From an uncultured Pseudomonadota bacterium (GTDB taxonomy: Bacteria > SAR324 > NAC60-12): 55,678 bases of DNA. Made by a program: the position numbers and the translations under genes. Of this stretch, positions 42,975 through 50,263 are shown one piece after another (within the stretch, counting starts at the first letter, position 1; each line of letters begins with the position of its first letter). The stretch is from positions 1 through 55,678 of the forward strand of contig CAJWCD010000005.1 in assembly GCA_913020725.1 (NCBI GenBank), read 5' to 3'. The notes beneath the pieces are model-generated. The model worked only from the letters and a program-made list of their open reading frames with translations. It searched no databases and had not been told where the DNA came from.

Positions 42975-45716
42975 ATGGCCATCCCGCAGGTGGACACCCC
43001 AATGATGCAGCAGTTCAACGCCGTCAAGCGGGAGCATCCGGACAAACTCGTCTTCTTCCGCATGGGGGATTTCTACGAGATGTTCGGCGAGGATGCCGTG
43101 GTGGGAGCGCGGGTGCTACAAATCGCACTCACCTCGCGGGACAAGCGCAGCGAACATGCAGTGCCCATGTGCGGGGTGCCCTACAAGGCTTACGAGCAGT
43201 ACCTCAACAAGCTCACCGCTGCTGGCTACAAGGTCGCGCTCTGCGACCAGACCGAGGATGCGGCGGAGGCCAAGGGGCTGGTGACACGGGAGGTGGTGCG
43301 CATCGTCACCCCTGGAACCACCGTCTCCCCGCAGCTCATTGACCCCGACCGCAACCACTACCTGCTCGCGCTCACGATCGACCTGCGGGCGCGGCGGCTC
43401 GGAGCCGCGTTTGCAGACCTCTCGACCGGAGAGTTCGAGATCGCCGAGTTCGCGCAGGACGAACTCCCGAAGCTCTACGACTTCCTCGCTCAACTCGACC
43501 CGCAGGAAATCCTGCTCGCGCAAAGCCGTTCCGCAGCGGAAACCGCGTTTCTCGAACCCCTCACCCAGCGGGTTTCGCAACTGCTTGCCCCCCATGACCT
43601 TTCCCTGCTCAACGGTCACGAAACCGAACACCCCCCCTCGCAACGCTTCCAATTCGTCGATCCCTACCTCTTTGATCAGGACGCCGCCCGGAAGTGCTTG
43701 CAAACGCATTTTCAGACGCACAACCTCGCAGGTTTCGGGATCGAGCCTCTTACACTCGGAACCGCCGCCGCTGGTGGTTTGCTTGCTTATCTGAAAGAAA
43801 CTCAGAAGTGCAGCCTTGCCCACTTCACCTCGGTCAAGCCGTATGTCTTTGAGCAGACGATGCTGCTCGACGAGGCGACCGTCCGGAACTTGGAACTCTT
43901 TGAAACGCAGTCCGGCAACAAGCGCCACACGCTCTTTGCGGTACTGAACCACACCTGCACCCCGATGGGAGCCAGATTGCTGCGGCAGTGGATCCGGACT
44001 CCCCTGCTGGGTGTGGAGGCACTGAACGCCCGGCTGGGTGCGGTGGAGGAATTCGCATCGCAGCTCCTGCTCTGCGGAGAACTGCAAACCCGGCTCAAGG
44101 GGGTGCAGGATTTGCCGCGCATCCTTGGGCGCATCAACCTGTCCGTGGTGGAGGTTCCGGACCTCGTAGGGTTGCGGGAATCGCTGACACACCTACAAAC
44201 CCTGCCGGACTTGCTGGCCAAATTGCAGTGTGCCAAGCTGCGCTCGTTGGCCGAGGACTTCGATCCGCTGCCAGACCTGCTTGCGCTCCTGCAAACCAAG
44301 CTGCTGGAAACCCCCTCTGCAAAGCTCCGGGAGGGCGGCTACATTGGCGAAGGTGTTTCTACAGAACTGGACGAACTGCGCGACCTCGCCCACAACTCAA
44401 AGCAGGTGCTCAACGAAGTGCTGCTGCGCGAGCGCGAGCGCACAGGTATCCCTTCCCTCAAAATTAGCTACAACAAGATCTTCGGCTACTACCTCGAAGC
44501 CAGCAACGCCCACAAGGCTTCGGTTCCGGAGGACTACATCCGCAAGCAAACGCTGGTCAATGCCGAGCGCTACATCACCCCGGAACTCAAAGAGTTCGAG
44601 GAGAAAATCCTCACGGCAGAAGAACGTATCGGAGAACTGGAATACAAGCTTTTCCTGACGCTCAAATCCGAGGTCATTGCCGAAACCCCCCGGATTCAGG
44701 CCAGCGCTCGACTCGTCGCTGAGCTAGACGTGCTTTCCGGACTCGCCACTGCCGCTGAGCACCAAGGCTATGTCCGTCCCACGCTCCACACACTCGACGC
44801 CCCCCGCATTTTGCAACTCAAGGGGAGCCGCCATCCGGTGATCGAGCGCATTGACCTCGGCGAACCGTTTGTTCCCAACGATTTGGAATTGGACGAGAAT
44901 TCCCGTCGGATCATGCTCATCACCGGACCCAACATGGCTGGGAAATCAACGTACATGCGTCAGGTTGCGCTCAACGTACTGATGGCACAGATCGGCAGTT
45001 TTGTGCCTGCGGACTCGGCGGAGTTGTCGCTGTCGGATCGCATTTTCACACGGGTGGGGGCCTCGGATAATCTGAGTTTGGGGCAAAGCACCTTCATGCT
45101 GGAGATGAACGAGGCGGCGGCGATCCTTCACAACGCCACTGAGCGTAGTCTCGTGATCCTTGACGAAATTGGGCGTGGCACCAGCACCTTTGACGGCATC
45201 AGCATCGCGTGGGCGATTGTGGAACACCTCCACCAGCTTGGGGCGCTCACGCTCTGCGCAACGCACTATCACGAATTGACCGCACTGGCCAAGGAACTCA
45301 ACAGCGTCGAAAATTTCAGCGTCAGCATCCACGAGGAGAGCGAGCAGTTAGTGTTCATGCGCAAGGTTGTGCCGGGTGAAGCCGACCGCAGCTACGGCGT
45401 GCAAGTTGCAAAGTTAGCGGGGTTGCCGCGTTCTGTGGTTGAACGGGCACGGGCAGTGATGACCGAACTGGAGGCGTCCTCGGTCGCGCATCGGGTTCCG
45501 GAATTGGCCGCTACACTAGCGAAAACGGCAAGTTCTCCACTAGTTTCGGAAGCCGTGGTGCGCGATCCTGGAATTGTCCCTGTGAGTCCACAGTTGTCGC
45601 TGTTTCCAGAGGAACATCCACTGCTGTCAGCACTGCGCAGACTCGACCCCAATCAACTGACTCCCATGCAGGCGTTGACGCTGTTGCATGATTTTATCAC
45701 TCAAGCCAAGGGATAA
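42975..45716 (+). CDS. mutS: DNA mismatch repair protein MutS
   Basis: 'TPMMQQ', 'RMGDFYEMF', 'TGPNMAGKST', 'STFM.EM', 'DEIGRGTST', 'THYHEL'. Confidence 0.97.
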   Translation: MAIPQVDTPMMQQFNAVKREHPDKLVFFRMGDFYEMFGEDAVVGARVLQIALTSRDKRSEHAVPMCGVPYKAYEQYLNKLTAAGYKVALCDQTEDAAEAKGLVTREVVRIVTPGTTVSPQLIDPDRNHYLLALTIDLRARRLGAAFADLSTGEFEIAEFAQDELPKLYDFLAQLDPQEILLAQSRSAAETAFLEPLTQRVSQLLAPHDLSLLNGHETEHPPSQRFQFVDPYLFDQDAARKCLQTHFQTHNLAGFGIEPLTLGTAAAGGLLAYLKETQKCSLAHFTSVKPYVFEQTMLLDEATVRNLELFETQSGNKRHTLFAVLNHTCTPMGARLLRQWIRTPLLGVEALNARLGAVEEFASQLLLCGELQTRLKGVQDLPRILGRINLSVVEVPDLVGLRESLTHLQTLPDLLAKLQCAKLRSLAEDFDPLPDLLALLQTKLLETPSAKLREGGYIGEGVSTELDELRDLAHNSKQVLNEVLLRERERTGIPSLKISYNKIFGYYLEASNAHKASVPEDYIRKQTLVNAERYITPELKEFEEKILTAEERIGELEYKLFLTLKSEVIAETPRIQASARLVAELDVLSGLATAAEHQGYVRPTLHTLDAPRILQLKGSRHPVIERIDLGEPFVPNDLELDENSRRIMLITGPNMAGKSTYMRQVALNVLMAQIGSFVPADSAELSLSDRIFTRVGASDNLSLGQSTFMLEMNEAAAILHNATERSLVILDEIGRGTSTFDGISIAWAIVEHLHQLGALTLCATHYHELTALAKELNSVENFSVSIHEESEQLVFMRKVVPGEADRSYGVQVAKLAGLPRSVVERARAVMTELEASSVAHRVPELAATLAKTASSPLVSEAVVRDPGIVPVSPQLSLFPEEHPLLSALRRLDPNQLTPMQALTLLHDFITQAKG

Positions 45717-45719
45717 CCC

Positions 45720-46223
45720 ATGTCCCAATCCCGCATTGCCGTTTACCCCACCAGTGCCAACCCGCCAACCCTTGGACACGCGGACATTGTTTGCCGCGTG
45801 AGCCGTCAGTTTGACCATGTTTTTTGGGCGGCGGCGGTTAACCCGAAGAAGCAGTACCTCTTCACACAGGAGGAGCGCTTGGCGATGATGATGGAGTATA
45901 TCCGGCACCACGGACTGGAGAATGTCACTGTGGAAACCTTTTCTGGAGCAACGGTGCGCTACGCCCAAAAGTGTGAGGCCACTGCACTCGTCAAGGGCTT
46001 GCGCAATCCCGATGATTTTCAGGCCGAGTACCAGCAGGCACTCGGCAATCTTGGTATTGATGCCACCATTGAGACCTTTTGCCTCTTTGGACGCCCGGAG
46101 TACTATGGAGTCAGTTCCTCGTTGGCGCGGGAATTGGCCTTGCTCGGTGAGAACATTGGGGGGTTTGTGCTGCCGTCCGTGGCCGAGATGGTGGTCAACC
46201 TGCTGCGCGAACGAGGAGCCTGA
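45720..46223 (+). CDS. coaD: Phosphopantetheine adenylyltransferase
   Basis: 'YP....PPTLGHADI', 'NPKK', 'KGLR..DDFQAE', 'VSSS'. Confidence 0.9.
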   Translation: MSQSRIAVYPTSANPPTLGHADIVCRVSRQFDHVFWAAAVNPKKQYLFTQEERLAMMMEYIRHHGLENVTVETFSGATVRYAQKCEATALVKGLRNPDDFQAEYQQALGNLGIDATIETFCLFGRPEYYGVSSSLARELALLGENIGGFVLPSVAEMVVNLLRERGA

Positions 46224-46225
46224 CC

Positions 46226-46993
46226 ATGCCCCTAGTGGATGCCGTCAACGAAATTGACTGGCACAACGGGCCACGCTCGATTCCCCTGCTGGAACCAACG
46301 GCTTGGGGCTACACAACCCTCGGCGTTCTGCTTGCGGTTTCGGTCTTGACCTCGCACCTCCACGATCCCACTCTTTTCAACCAACTCTCACCCTCCGGAG
46401 GCGTCCACAACGCCCTCGGTGTGGGCGGAGCTTTGATCGGCGGAACCCTTGTCGAACTGTTTGGAAGCAGTGCGGTGTTGCTTGCGTGGCTTGTGGCACG
46501 TCTGCCTTTTTTAAATAGAATGGCCGCCGGAAACCTCAAGGCCGGAGTGATCCGGAAAGTCTACTATGCCATACTGTTGACATGGATGGTGGCGGTGCTG
46601 GCGGAACTCGTGCAAGCTCGACACGCACCCGAGTTCGACAGCGACTGGCTGTGGTACCACCACGGCTATTTGGGCGAGATCACCGCCTATTGGCTGGGAC
46701 ATGCCACCGGCCCCATTGTCGGCATCGGTCTGTGCCTCGCAGTCGCCATGTTCGCGGCCTTCCGGATCATCACAGCCCTCACCCCTTGGCCCCTCATCCT
46801 GATCCTGTTCCAAATCATCAAGTTGCTGCTGCACCTGCTGCTGGCCCCCTTGGGCGCTGCTAGCTTCTTCCTGCACGCCCCGCGAACCTCAACTCGCACC
46901 CTGCCCGCCCTGCACCTCCCGCCTGACCCCTCTCGCTCCACGCTGGAAACCAAATTCACACCGTCGTCCATTCCGACTCCGTTTGAGAAATAA
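46226..46993 (+). CDS. Membrane protein resembling a stand-alone FtsK 4TM region
   Basis: 'S..HDPT.......VHNALGVGGALIGGTLVELFG', 'GYLG'; several TMs; no ATPase domain. Confidence 0.55.
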   Translation: MPLVDAVNEIDWHNGPRSIPLLEPTAWGYTTLGVLLAVSVLTSHLHDPTLFNQLSPSGGVHNALGVGGALIGGTLVELFGSSAVLLAWLVARLPFLNRMAAGNLKAGVIRKVYYAILLTWMVAVLAELVQARHAPEFDSDWLWYHHGYLGEITAYWLGHATGPIVGIGLCLAVAMFAAFRIITALTPWPLILILFQIIKLLLHLLLAPLGAASFFLHAPRTSTRTLPALHLPPDPSRSTLETKFTPSSIPTPFEK

Positions 46994-47226
46994 TTTCTCT
47001 TGAAGATATTGCCATAAGCAATATGAATGGGAGCGCTTTTTCTTGGGATGATCGGAAAGCCTGAGAAAACCAGTATTTCAAAGCCCTAGCCCAAGAGACG
47101 GGGATTCCTTACCAGAACCTGATCAACCTCTACCTCATCGAGTGTGCCTATTCCGGCAAGAAGCTCACCCTGCAATGGGCTTCTTGAAGTTCGGATACAC
47201 AACTCATCCATTCCGACTCCGCTTGA
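46967..47226. repeat. 20-bp direct repeats flanking a 220-bp insert
   Basis: TCCATTCCGACTCCG(T/C)TTGA at 46967-46986 and 47207-47226, one mismatch, 240 bp apart. Confidence 0.85.
47023..47187 (+). pseudogene. BrnT toxin N-terminus fused by deletion to BrnA/CopG-like antitoxin C-terminus
   Basis: One frame reads MNGSAFSWDDRKA*EN-QYFKALAQETGIPYQNLINLYLIECAYSGKKLTLQWAS*. Confidence 0.7.
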
Positions 47227-47293
47227 TTCTGGACGGCATTCCGCTTAGGTTGGTTTCCGAAGTCTCATCACCAACCCAAAATAGGAGTGTGCA

Positions 47294-47515
47294 ATGCAGG
47301 TGAAGATTGAATACTGCGTGGTTTGAAACTACGAGCCACGCGCAGCCGGTCTGGCTGCGGAACTCAAGCAGGCGTTCGGGGCAGACACCGAACTCATCCC
47401 CGGAGGGCGTGGGGATTTTGACGTGACCGTGGATGGAAGCGTGATTTTCTCAAAGAAGCAATTGGATCGCTTCCCGGAGGAGGGGGAGGTGCAAGCGTCG
47501 ATTCGTAACGCCTGA
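47294..47515 (+). CDS. SelW/SelT/SelH (Rdx family) selenoprotein, 73 aa, CxxU
   Basis: AGGAG RBS; MQVKIEYCVV-U(TGA 47324)-NYEPRAAGLAAELKQAFG...LIPGGRGDFDVTVDG..IFSKKQLDRFP; SECIS hairpin downstream. Confidence 0.93.
47341..47359 (+). promoter_or_regulatory. Bacterial SECIS element (apical hairpin)
   Basis: CGCAGCC-GGTCT-GGCTGCG: 7-bp stem with G-first loop starting 22 nt after the in-frame UGA. Confidence 0.88.
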
Positions 47516-47545
47516 CAGAGAACCCTCCGGACGGTCAGGAGTGCT

Positions 47546-47764
47546 TCAATAGTCGGCTTTGATGGCCGCTCGCACTTCGCGCTTGATGTCCTTGTTGCGC
47601 TGCTTGGCAGCGTTCTCCCGCTTGAGGCGCAAGGCGCGCGAGGGCTTCAGGTAGAATTTGCGCTTCTTGAGCTCCTTGAAGATACCTTCGCGGATGAGGG
47701 TACGCTTGAGTTGCATCATGGACTTGCCAATGTTGCTGTCTCGGACTTCGATCGTAATGGGCAT
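47546..47764 (-). CDS. rpsU: 30S ribosomal protein S21
   Basis: 'IEVRD...LKR...EGIFKELKKRKFYLKPS', basic, 72 aa. Confidence 0.9.
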   Translation of the reverse strand: MPITIEVRDSNIGKSMMQLKRTLIREGIFKELKKRKFYLKPSRALRLKRENAAKQRNKDIKREVRAAIKADY

Positions 47765-47838
47765 ATGATTCGTGGTTCCGGGTCTGAGGTTAAAACTAAA
47801 ACTATTCATTTTTAAACCACTGTCCGCAAAAAATCAAC

Positions 47839-48555
47839 CTATTTCTTTCCCTCACCCTCAGAATCTCCCTCCGGGCTGGGCAAGGCGGCTCGTTTTTTCA
47901 GTTCCAATAGTTCGGTGTCCAAATCCGGATCCGAGTCTTCAAGTTCGGCAAAACTGCGCTCCAGCGCGTCCTTGTCCGTGTCCATGCTGATTTCCTGATA
48001 TGCCTCAGCGCGGGACTGCTGATCCTCAATCTTGTCCTCCATGCGTTCGATGGTCTCCAGTGCCCCCGTCGAATCCCCAAAGCCTTCGATCGTCTGATAA
48101 ATCTTTTCCTGCGCTGCCGCCTGCTTCTGTTTGGCAAGCAGGAGTCCCTTCTTGCGCTTGATCTCGTCGATCTTGTCTTCAAGCTTCTGGTAGCCGTCGC
48201 GCAACACATCCGCGTTCTGCTTGTGGTGGGCCAACTGCTTTTCAAACTCCAGTGCCCGCCGTTCGAACTCCTTCTTGCGGACCAGAGCTTCTTTGGCGAG
48301 ATCGTCCTTACCGTTTTGCACGGCGAGAATGGCTTTCTGCTCCCACTTCCCGGCTTCGGCTTGTTCCTTCTCGGTGTCGCGCTCTAGGCGTTTTTGCAGC
48401 GCGAGCGCTTCGGTCATTTGCTGCTTGGCCTGACGTTTTTGCTCATCTAAATCGGTGATCATCTGCTGGAGCATTTTTGCAGGATCCTCCGCTTTGTCCA
48501 GAAAGGAACTGCTGTAAGCCCGGATGACGTTGATGAAACGGCCAACGATGCCCAT
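47839..48555 (-). CDS. pspA: PspA/IM30 family protein
   Basis: 'MGIVGRF..VI', 'DKAEDP.KML.Q', 'DLAKEAL', coiled coil. Confidence 0.9.
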   Translation of the reverse strand: MGIVGRFINVIRAYSSSFLDKAEDPAKMLQQMITDLDEQKRQAKQQMTEALALQKRLERDTEKEQAEAGKWEQKAILAVQNGKDDLAKEALVRKKEFERRALEFEKQLAHHKQNADVLRDGYQKLEDKIDEIKRKKGLLLAKQKQAAAQEKIYQTIEGFGDSTGALETIERMEDKIEDQQSRAEAYQEISMDTDKDALERSFAELEDSDPDLDTELLELKKRAALPSPEGDSEGEGKK

Positions 48556-48586: not shown

Positions 48587-50263
48587 TCAGAACAACTGCT
48601 TGCGCTTGTTGGAGGGCAAAATATTCAATGCTTCACGATACTTCGCAACGGTGCGCCGTGCAACCTTGATGTTGCTGCGATGGTAGAGGATTTCGGCAAT
48701 CTGGAGGTCGGTGAAGGGTGTTTTCACGTCCTCGCCCTGCACCAAATGCTGGATCATATCCTTGATGCGCTTGGACGAAACCGCCTCGCCGCTGACTTGT
48801 TCGATACCGCTGGTGAAGAAGTACTTGAGTTCGAAGATACCCTGCGGGGTGTGGACATACTTGTTGGTGGTGATACGGCTGACCGTGGATTCGTGGACGT
48901 CGATGTTCTCTGCCACATCCTTGAGGACGAGCGGTTTAAGGAAGTGGATGCCCCGGTCGAAGAACTCCTCCTGAAAGCGGAGGATGCTCTTGGTGACGCG
49001 GTAGATCGTCTTCTGGCGCTGTTCGATACTCTTCATCAGCCACTGCCCCGCTTTGATTTTCTCCTGAATGTACTCCTTGGTGAGCTGGCCGTCTTCGGCC
49101 ATCGAGTCACACAACTCCCGGTAGTACTGGTTGATCCGCAGACGCGGGATGCCGTTGGCGTTGAGGGCGACCTTGTACTCCCCGGCGTTCTGGTAGATGT
49201 ACACGTCTGGGATGATGTAGTTGTGCGCGGAGGTGGGGACGAAGGAGCGTCCGGGCTTGGGTTCGAGGGACATGATGTGCTTGTACGCTTCGATCACGTC
49301 ATCAAGCTCCTGCTTCTGACGGCGGGCGATGCGGCGCAGGTCCTTGGACTCCAAGAGGTCCATGTCGTCTTCGATGATGCGGTAGCTGAGGCTGTCCACC
49401 TGTTCGGCGTGGCGAAGCTGGATGAGCAGACACTCCTGCAAGCTACGCGCACCAACACCACTGGGTTCGAAAGTCTGGATGCACTCCAGCACATGTTCCA
49501 CAAAGCAGCCAACCTCATGCCGCACCTCTAGCACTTCAGGTTCCGGTTCTTCGGGATCGTTTTCTTCTTCAAACACGGGTGGTTCGGGCTTGCGGCTGCG
49601 TCGTACCTGCGTCGCCCGTTCTGGCAGGAACTTCCAGCCAAAGCGTTCGGGAGCAACCTCGACCTCCCACGGAATCGTGCTCCAACGCTGCATGATGCGC
49701 TCGTGGAGGTCTGGCTGCGCCTGTAGAAGTTCCCGGATGGCCGTGACCAGATAACCGTCGTCCTCGATGTTGCCAATCAGATGGACCCCAACCTCGTACT
49801 CCAATTGGTCCAGCACTTCAAAATCCAACTGCCAACGCAAATTGTCTGCGAGCGATTCACCCTGCGCGAGCGTGGCCTCCAGTGACGGCAGTTCGTCATC
49901 GCCCCCTCCGCCACTGCTGCGGTAGGAGTAACCTCCGAACTGGTCGATTTGCTCGACATACTGTTGCCAGTCGATTTCGTCCTGATCTTTTTCTTCCTTC
50001 TTCTCCTCGCGTGCCGTTTCAAAGGCTTCGGTGTCGGTCGTGGTTTCCGGAGCGTCGGTGGAGTCTTGGGCGTTGTCTTCTTCGGAAGGATAGGTGTCGA
50101 TGTCCATGCCTTCCTCCAAGACCGGGTTTTCCTGGAGAGTTTGGTCGATCAGTTCCTCCAGTTCGGTGCGGGAGAGCTGGAGTAGTTTGATCGCCTGTTG
50201 AAGTTGCGGGGTCATGATGAGCTGCTGGGACAGCTTCATCTGCAACTTCATGTGCATGGCCAT
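48587..50263 (-). CDS. rpoN: RNA polymerase sigma-54 factor
   Basis: 'TPQLQQAIKLLQL', 'GVGARSLQECL', 'HESTVSR', RpoN box 'ARRTVAKYRE'. Confidence 0.97.
   Translation of the reverse strand: MAMHMKLQMKLSQQLIMTPQLQQAIKLLQLSRTELEELIDQTLQENPVLEEGMDIDTYPSEEDNAQDSTDAPETTTDTEAFETAREEKKEEKDQDEIDWQQYVEQIDQFGGYSYRSSGGGGDDELPSLEATLAQGESLADNLRWQLDFEVLDQLEYEVGVHLIGNIEDDGYLVTAIRELLQAQPDLHERIMQRWSTIPWEVEVAPERFGWKFLPERATQVRRSRKPEPPVFEEENDPEEPEPEVLEVRHEVGCFVEHVLECIQTFEPSGVGARSLQECLLIQLRHAEQVDSLSYRIIEDDMDLLESKDLRRIARRQKQELDDVIEAYKHIMSLEPKPGRSFVPTSAHNYIIPDVYIYQNAGEYKVALNANGIPRLRINQYYRELCDSMAEDGQLTKEYIQEKIKAGQWLMKSIEQRQKTIYRVTKSILRFQEEFFDRGIHFLKPLVLKDVAENIDVHESTVSRITTNKYVHTPQGIFELKYFFTSGIEQVSGEAVSSKRIKDMIQHLVQGEDVKTPFTDLQIAEILYHRSNIKVARRTVAKYREALNILPSNKRKQLF

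Follow-up and report, generated by a model that had tools for sequence, protein, structure and literature searches.

Within the window, by which we mean the whole stretch of 55,678 nt that was analysed, a short gene of the Rdx family lies on the forward strand at 47294–47515. Its translation gives a SelW-like selenoprotein of 73 residues, with selenocysteine (Sec) as residue 11. The ATG start codon (47294–47296) follows, at a distance of 6 nt, a ribosome-binding site on the same strand, AGGAG (47283–47287), that can be read directly from the sequence; GGAG-like motifs seem to recur at a similar distance upstream in many of the loci of 30 relatives. The frame ends at a TGA stop codon (47513–47515). 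A further in-frame TGA occupies codon 11 (47324–47326, forward strand), in the context E-Y-C-V-V-U-N-Y, and its reading as Sec is based on a column that is conserved in relatives. Together with Cys8 it forms the redox motif C8-V-V-U11 (TGC GTG GTT TGA, 47315–47326, forward strand). Past this codon the same frame continues through GGRGDFDVTVDG and FSKKQLDRFP, for 62 codons in total to the stop. Still within the coding region of the same strand, a hairpin spans 47341–47359 (CGCAGCC-GGUCU-GGCUGCG), with a 7-bp stem formed by 47341–47347 and 47353–47359 and an apical loop, GGUCU, at 47348–47352; bSECIS constraints and covariation identify it as a candidate SECIS element.

A preliminary description of this DNA had pointed to the AGGAG, the ATG, the TGA at codon 11, the Rdx-type frame downstream of it and a hairpin whose loop starts at the 22nd base after the UGA. 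All of these are present, with 21 bases between the UGA and the loop. It had also held that the gene would be invisible to an ORF track. This is borne out by a plain ORF listing of the locus, which contains only a 30-aa in-frame tail (47423–47515) and out-of-frame fragments, and by the protein database entry for the locus (P0005), a truncated form of 54 aa that starts after the UGA.

The surroundings of the gene are of a housekeeping kind. Upstream of it are mutS (42975–45716), a cytidylyltransferase-like gene of the coaD type (45720–46223) and, on the forward strand, a gene for a membrane protein of 255 aa (46226–46993), which matches only the 4TM region of FtsK (PF13491, E 5.3e-09) and is without the motor domain. 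Downstream, on the reverse strand, lie rpsU, encoding ribosomal protein S21 (47546–47809), pspA (47839–48555) and rpoN (48587–50263). Parts of this gene order are kept in related genera. Among the flanking ORFs of 30 loci, S21 is found in 5, PspA is the nearest ORF in 4 and an HD-domain protein is found in 6, while aldo/keto reductase and pentapeptide proteins each occur in 2–3 and many of the ORFs have no Pfam match. None of the 57 flanking ORFs of these loci is a conserved redox partner, and we therefore draw no operon-based function from the neighborhood.

Several smaller features of this region were recorded. In 5 of the 30 loci, the present genome counted (L021, L022, L025, L028 and L029), an FtsK_4TM-like gene immediately precedes selW. 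The spacer between the membrane-protein gene and selW (46994–47293) is 300 nt long and has no Rfam match; the matching gap in the closest relative, L022, is only 71 nt. A scan of 46900–47900 for promoters and terminators returned a promoter-like segment at 46983–47010 and a terminator-like segment at 47872–47892, neither of which exceeds shuffled sequences. As listed, the S21 ORF encodes 87 aa; the S21 domain covers residues 19–71, and the true start of the ORF may be further downstream; the S21 ORFs of relatives range from 87 to 103 aa, with one of 216 aa.

Protein family and predicted fold

For profile scoring, the read-through product was passed to the programs with Sec written as Cys. It covers the Pfam Rdx profile PF10262 from end to end (positions 1–74 of 74), with 75.6 bits against a cut-off of 22.6 (E 3.5e-21), and it exceeds the cut-offs of the NCBIfam equivalog NF041051, "SelT/SelW/SelH family (seleno)protein" (102 bits against 88), and of TIGR02174 (61.8 bits against 34.2). 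The assignment to the Rdx/SelW family made in the preliminary description is thus upheld. When the genome itself was searched with TGA read through, the NF041051 score was 93.2, also above the cut-off.

A sequence search of the PDB gave eight matches at E ≤ 0.01, the best being 2fa8 (Agrobacterium Atu0228, E 2.6e-10); mouse selenoprotein W (2npb, E 0.0019) and 2ljk (E 3.5e-08) are also among them. In the three alignments printed, the CxxC of the match aligns with the CxxU of the query, placing a Cys opposite position 11. Modelled with AlphaFold2 from 29 relatives, the protein reaches a mean pLDDT of 93.7 and a pTM of 0.80. The model consists of a strand (residues 2–8), the CxxU turn, a helix (residues 14–28), three more strands, a short helical turn (residues 54–57) and a final helix, so that the CxxU motif is predicted to lie directly after the first β-strand, between it and the first helix. 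Neither Cys8 nor position 11 varies among the 29 aligned relatives.

The top Foldseek matches of the model are bacterial SelW-related structures (TMq 0.87–0.93), among them 2fa8 (TMq 0.91, rmsd 1.1) and 2ojl (TMq 0.93). The solved Cys-type bacterial Rdx proteins (2fa8, 2obk, 2oka, 2ojl, 2p0g and 3dex) share the predicted fold, with an rmsd of 1.0–2.1 Å within that TMq range and sequence identity of 29–39%. They differ from the present protein in having Cys in place of Sec, and in their length, since the chains as deposited have 103–108 residues and are about 25–35 residues longer. Mouse SelW (2npb) is a lower match, with a TMq of 0.68, and thioredoxins and glutaredoxins follow at 0.40–0.61. 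Mammalian SelW and MIEN1/C17orf37 (2ljk, TMq 0.76) are members of the same Rdx family, with a thioredoxin-like fold and a CxxU or CxxC motif after strand 1. Eukaryotic SelW is decoded with a SECIS element in the 3′-UTR, together with SBP2 and eEFSec. In this respect mammalian SelW differs from the present gene, in which the candidate signal is inside the coding region; to our knowledge, the recoding signal has that location in all bacteria.

The hairpin downstream of the UGA codon

The bSECIS model (PMC13188914) allows an apical loop of 3–9 nt, a stem of 4–16 bp and a spacing of 16–37 nt, with a G in the first two loop positions and a minimum free energy (MFE) of -7.5 kcal/mol or lower. The hairpin of the present gene has a loop of 5 nt, an upper stem of 7 bp and a spacing of 21 nt, counted from the UGA to the loop. 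Each of the first two loop bases is a G, where at least one is needed, and a U follows them; the 19-nt core has an MFE of -12.5 kcal/mol. It lies within all four published constraints and, with the covariation described below, the earlier proposal that it is a SECIS element holds up well. Loop, stem, position of the G, spacing and energy are shared with the published model and with SECIS elements of the E. coli fdhF type, although the 7-bp stem of this copy has no evident bulged U. The loop of the E. coli fdhF SECIS reads GGUC, as does that of the candidate hairpin in selD described below.

The 19-nt cores of the relatives fit the model to differing degrees: 17 of 30 pass all four constraints, 12 fail on energy alone and 29 have the G. 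The core of L046, at -7.4 kcal/mol, likewise misses the energy limit, and its fold is in a different register that lacks the G. In an ungapped alignment of 48 columns from 30 sequences, the helix is paired in 89.0% of cells, and four of the seven stem pairs have changes on both sides (34 such cells). The covariation score is 0.423, compared to 0.147 in shuffled alignments, none of 500 of which reaches 0.423; control helices in which the partners were slid by 1–3 columns score 0.013 to 0.116. The two most variable pairs are 18:36, which occurs as CG in 7 sequences, GC in 6, AU in 5 and UA in 5, and 21:33, which occurs as GC in 14 and AU in 12. Both join third codon positions, which argues that selection acts on the pairing of the RNA and not on the peptide. 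Two loop bases, G26 and U29, are invariant in the 30 sequences. Pair 22:32 is an unpaired mismatch of the A-C type in 14 of the 30 and is read as an internal mismatch that may be tolerated in part of the family; RNAalifold returns the same helix without this pair.

The fold of the single sequence is less distinctive. The 52 nt after the UGA fold no better than shuffled sequences (z = -0.09, with 82 of 200 shuffles as good). For the 23-nt core, z is -2.50, and 4 of 200 shuffles are as good. An Rfam scan of 47000–47800 at E ≤ 10 found no SECIS family, its only output being three snoRNA-type chance matches, all below the gathering threshold. It is the comparative evidence that shows the predicted hairpin to be beyond chance, one sequence alone being weak evidence.

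Decoding of the UGA codon

Homologues were sought in the present genome and in others of its genus, family and order, 41 in total. Such a homologue is present in 32 of the 41, and each of the 33 matches has exactly one in-frame TGA. The loci of 30 of these matches were fetched; in all 30, the TGA corresponds to the U of C-x-x-U and one frame is kept on both sides of it. In an alignment of 29 sequences, which leaves out L042 with its diverging C-terminus, identity ranges from 43 to 90%, and conservation extends in a single frame over the ten codons that precede the UGA and the 62 that follow it. At the level of the phylum, 69 of 88 genomes match NF041051 and all 71 matches have one TGA, the cut-off of the model being exceeded, with TGA read through, in only 12 of the 88 genomes.

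In a scan limited to one genome per species, 272 of 600 pattern matches proved to be relatives, and TGA is at the CxxU column in all of the best 80. The query was a single protein and the patterns include the SECIS-encoded peptide YEPRAAGL, so that these best 80 loci lean towards close, Sec-type relatives. Their titles include Acidobacteriota, Gemmatimonadales, Krumholzibacteriia, Desulfobacula, Fibrobacteraceae and Methylomirabilota; the nearest named records are uncultured MAGs titled Deltaproteobacteria and Pseudomonadota, with 89% and 77% identity. The peptide N-Y-E-P-R-A-A-G-L-A, which is encoded over the hairpin, is near-invariant among the best 80 of the 272 loci across many phylum labels, while the surrounding residues vary, an observation that is partly selected by the YEPRAAGL pattern.

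More distant homologues came from a HMMER search of 1.84 billion representatives, which gave 690 matches at E ≤ 0.001. In the alignment of the best 150, the Sec column holds Cys in 70, Trp in 51, Ser in 4, Gly in 4 and Leu in 1, and is a gap in 20, which are N-terminally truncated calls. A word search gave 28 matches, 14 of which were aligned, the other 14, mostly short fragments, being left out; here the column holds Trp in 7, Cys in 1 and Gly in 1 (P0013, sourced from NCBI), and 5 are truncated. The alternation of Cys and Sec expected for this family is therefore found, in that homologues have Cys or TGA at the UGA column; the real residues there are overwhelmingly Cys, with a small minority of Ser, Gly and Leu. 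Neither outcome that the preliminary description had named as speaking against its reading, non-Cys homologues at this position or a complete genome lacking selABC, was obtained. Since these three residues do occur in a few distant homologues, the position is apparently not universally redox-active across the wider Rdx family. Two representatives of the family, P0044 and P0141, have Trp at both redox positions (E-Y-W-G-M-W-N-Y); they would be UxxU forms with two selenocysteines if each Trp is a TGA read with the Mycoplasma-type table.

The Trp entries are the point in favor of read-through without selenium, in which TGA would be a sense codon for Trp or Gly, or would be suppressed by a near-cognate tRNA, and residue 11 would not be Sec. 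They imply that some gene callers use TGA as Trp, and most simply they would be TGA codons translated with the Mycoplasma-type table, artefacts on short contigs. In the window, however, TGA ends 23 of the 38 non-overlapping ORFs of at least 200 aa, as it ends the present gene, and with table 11 these ORFs cover 86% of the window. TGA is thus the main stop codon, which excludes a code that uses it as a sense codon. A Trp in the redox site of a CxxC or CxxU protein would also be chemically senseless, and the hairpin fits a signal of the SelB type.

Read-through without selenium is also opposed by the presence of a dedicated machinery for Sec. The draft genome comprises 204 contigs and is 93.3% complete. 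It contains selA (531.1 bits), selB (388.5 bits), selD (363.4 bits) and tRNA-Sec, the product of selC (66.3 bits), all above their curated cut-offs, and ARAGORN identifies a tRNA-SeC with the anticodon tca. The selD gene (contig C93; about 456–1500 of locus L010) itself has one in-frame TGA, at 516–518 of that locus, in the context T-C-G-U-A-A-K, three residues before the Lys; we take this to be the active-site Cys/Sec position. It is followed by a candidate hairpin of 6 bp with a GGUC loop 17 nt downstream (-8.1 kcal/mol, z = -3.15). A SelD of the Sec type means that the organism has at least a second selenoprotein. The analysis confirms that this organism uses selenium and that its selenoproteins number at least two, SelD and the SelW-like protein. 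The preliminary description had taken the SelW-like gene to imply that the organism recodes UGA; the recoding is supported, but it was already evident from the machinery and the Sec-type SelD. The only correction to that description concerns the weight given to the gene, which is a member of a well-known family and no surprise. With all this in view, we consider read-through without selenium to be very unlikely.

Formate dehydrogenase was looked at separately. A formate dehydrogenase-N alpha query against the same genome gave eight partial matches (contigs C10, C6, C135 and C12), none of which is over the cut-off or has an in-frame TGA. As far as this query shows, FdhN would not be a selenoprotein in this genome. 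The Sec form of FdhA, the commonest bacterial selenoprotein, was not found with the formate dehydrogenase-N query among the molybdopterin oxidoreductases of the genome.

A less probable alternative still is a pseudogene, in which a CxxC gene of the Rdx family lost its function when a Cys codon mutated to a stop codon (TGY to TGA) and only a peptide of 10 residues is made. With table 11 the frame does stop at codon 11, and Cys forms do exist, as the 70 among the best 150 distant representatives attest. However, a decayed gene would hardly show the TGA in every close match (33/33), phylum match (71/71), fetched locus (30/30) and best locus of the wider scan (80/80), nor 62 downstream codons conserved in frame at 43–90% identity, and it would not keep a covarying hairpin; the probability that we leave to it is negligible. 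An assembly or sequencing error, with TGC or TGT as the true codon of an ordinary CxxC protein, is conceivable in a draft of many contigs, but it is just as implausible, because the same base is found in independent assemblies of 32 related genomes, 69 phylum genomes and the best 80 further public records, and a SECIS hairpin would have no reason to lie beside a Cys codon.

We conclude that the in-frame TGA almost certainly encodes selenocysteine, as judged from the sequence comparisons, and consider it highly probable that 47294–47515 (forward strand) functions as a gene encoding a SelW-like selenoprotein of 73 residues, in which UGA is recoded as Sec by means of the hairpin and SelB. By analogy with the established bacterial pathway, SelD would make selenophosphate and SelA would convert Ser-tRNA(Sec) to Sec-tRNA(Sec). 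When the ribosome meets the UGA at codon 11, SelB carrying Sec-tRNA(Sec) would bind the loop of the hairpin, Sec would be inserted instead of termination, and translation would continue to the UGA stop codon at 47513. The product is predicted to adopt a minimal thioredoxin-like fold (β1, the CxxU loop, α1, three strands, a short helical turn and a final helix). By analogy with the family, Cys8 and Sec11 may cycle between a reduced form and a reversible selenenylsulfide, and the protein may act as a small thiol/selenol oxidoreductase.

The gene among known SelW-like selenoproteins

The gene is already known in kind. SelW-like proteins are among the commonest bacterial selenoprotein families and those known for longest. 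Bacterial members with CxxU have been in print since 2005 (PMC1088965), and descriptions of the motif and of the SECIS element in the coding region date back to that year. Bacterial members (PF10262 Rdx, formerly PF05169; TIGR02174 CXXU_selWTH; NF041051) have in common with the present protein the CxxU motif, a length of about 70–80 residues and a SECIS element that follows shortly after the UGA and has a G in its small apical loop. There is no difference of substance between them and the present copy, which has only been missed by ordinary gene finders.

According to PMC1088965, no selenoprotein family of the Sargasso Sea is more abundant than the SelW-like proteins, with 48 genes, a CXXU motif and a function described as unclear. 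The paper lists 48 Sec forms and 7 Cys forms from the Sargasso Sea, compared to 4 Sec forms and 20 Cys forms in complete genomes. The CXXU motif suggests a redox function, and thiol-dependent redox activity or an interaction with glutathione is only suggested for the family (PMC1088965). In the GOS data, the family is among the most widespread, with 427 Sec forms and 56 Cys forms (PMC2398784). Cys homologues of SelW-like proteins are few or absent in organisms that use Sec (PMC1794560), which matches the 71 TGA forms among 71 matches in the present phylum.

A wider reading can be offered, to which we give only a small chance of being correct and which is drawn from the comparisons of sequence and gene order. 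This lineage could tolerate no Cys form of the SelW-like protein, which would make it an obligate selenoprotein, as the uniform TGA in the phylum might indicate. The near-invariant peptide N-Y-E-P-R-A-A-G-L-A-A-E, seen under the labels Acidobacteriota, Gemmatimonadota, Krumholzibacteriia, Desulfobacula and others in the best 80 of 272 loci and biased by the search pattern, could be held mainly by the SECIS RNA, or could reflect a self-contained cassette of UGA plus SECIS that is spreading between phyla. The proximity of the FtsK_4TM-like gene and pspA might, in turn, point to a redox role linked to membrane stress.

The identification of the SelW-like gene is correct, useful as an annotation fix and ordinary in kind, and it opens no new question. 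Its practical value lies in annotation, as the gene is missed or truncated by standard callers and Trp stands at the Sec position in many database copies. The annotation of this uncultured lineage should therefore have a Sec-aware correction.
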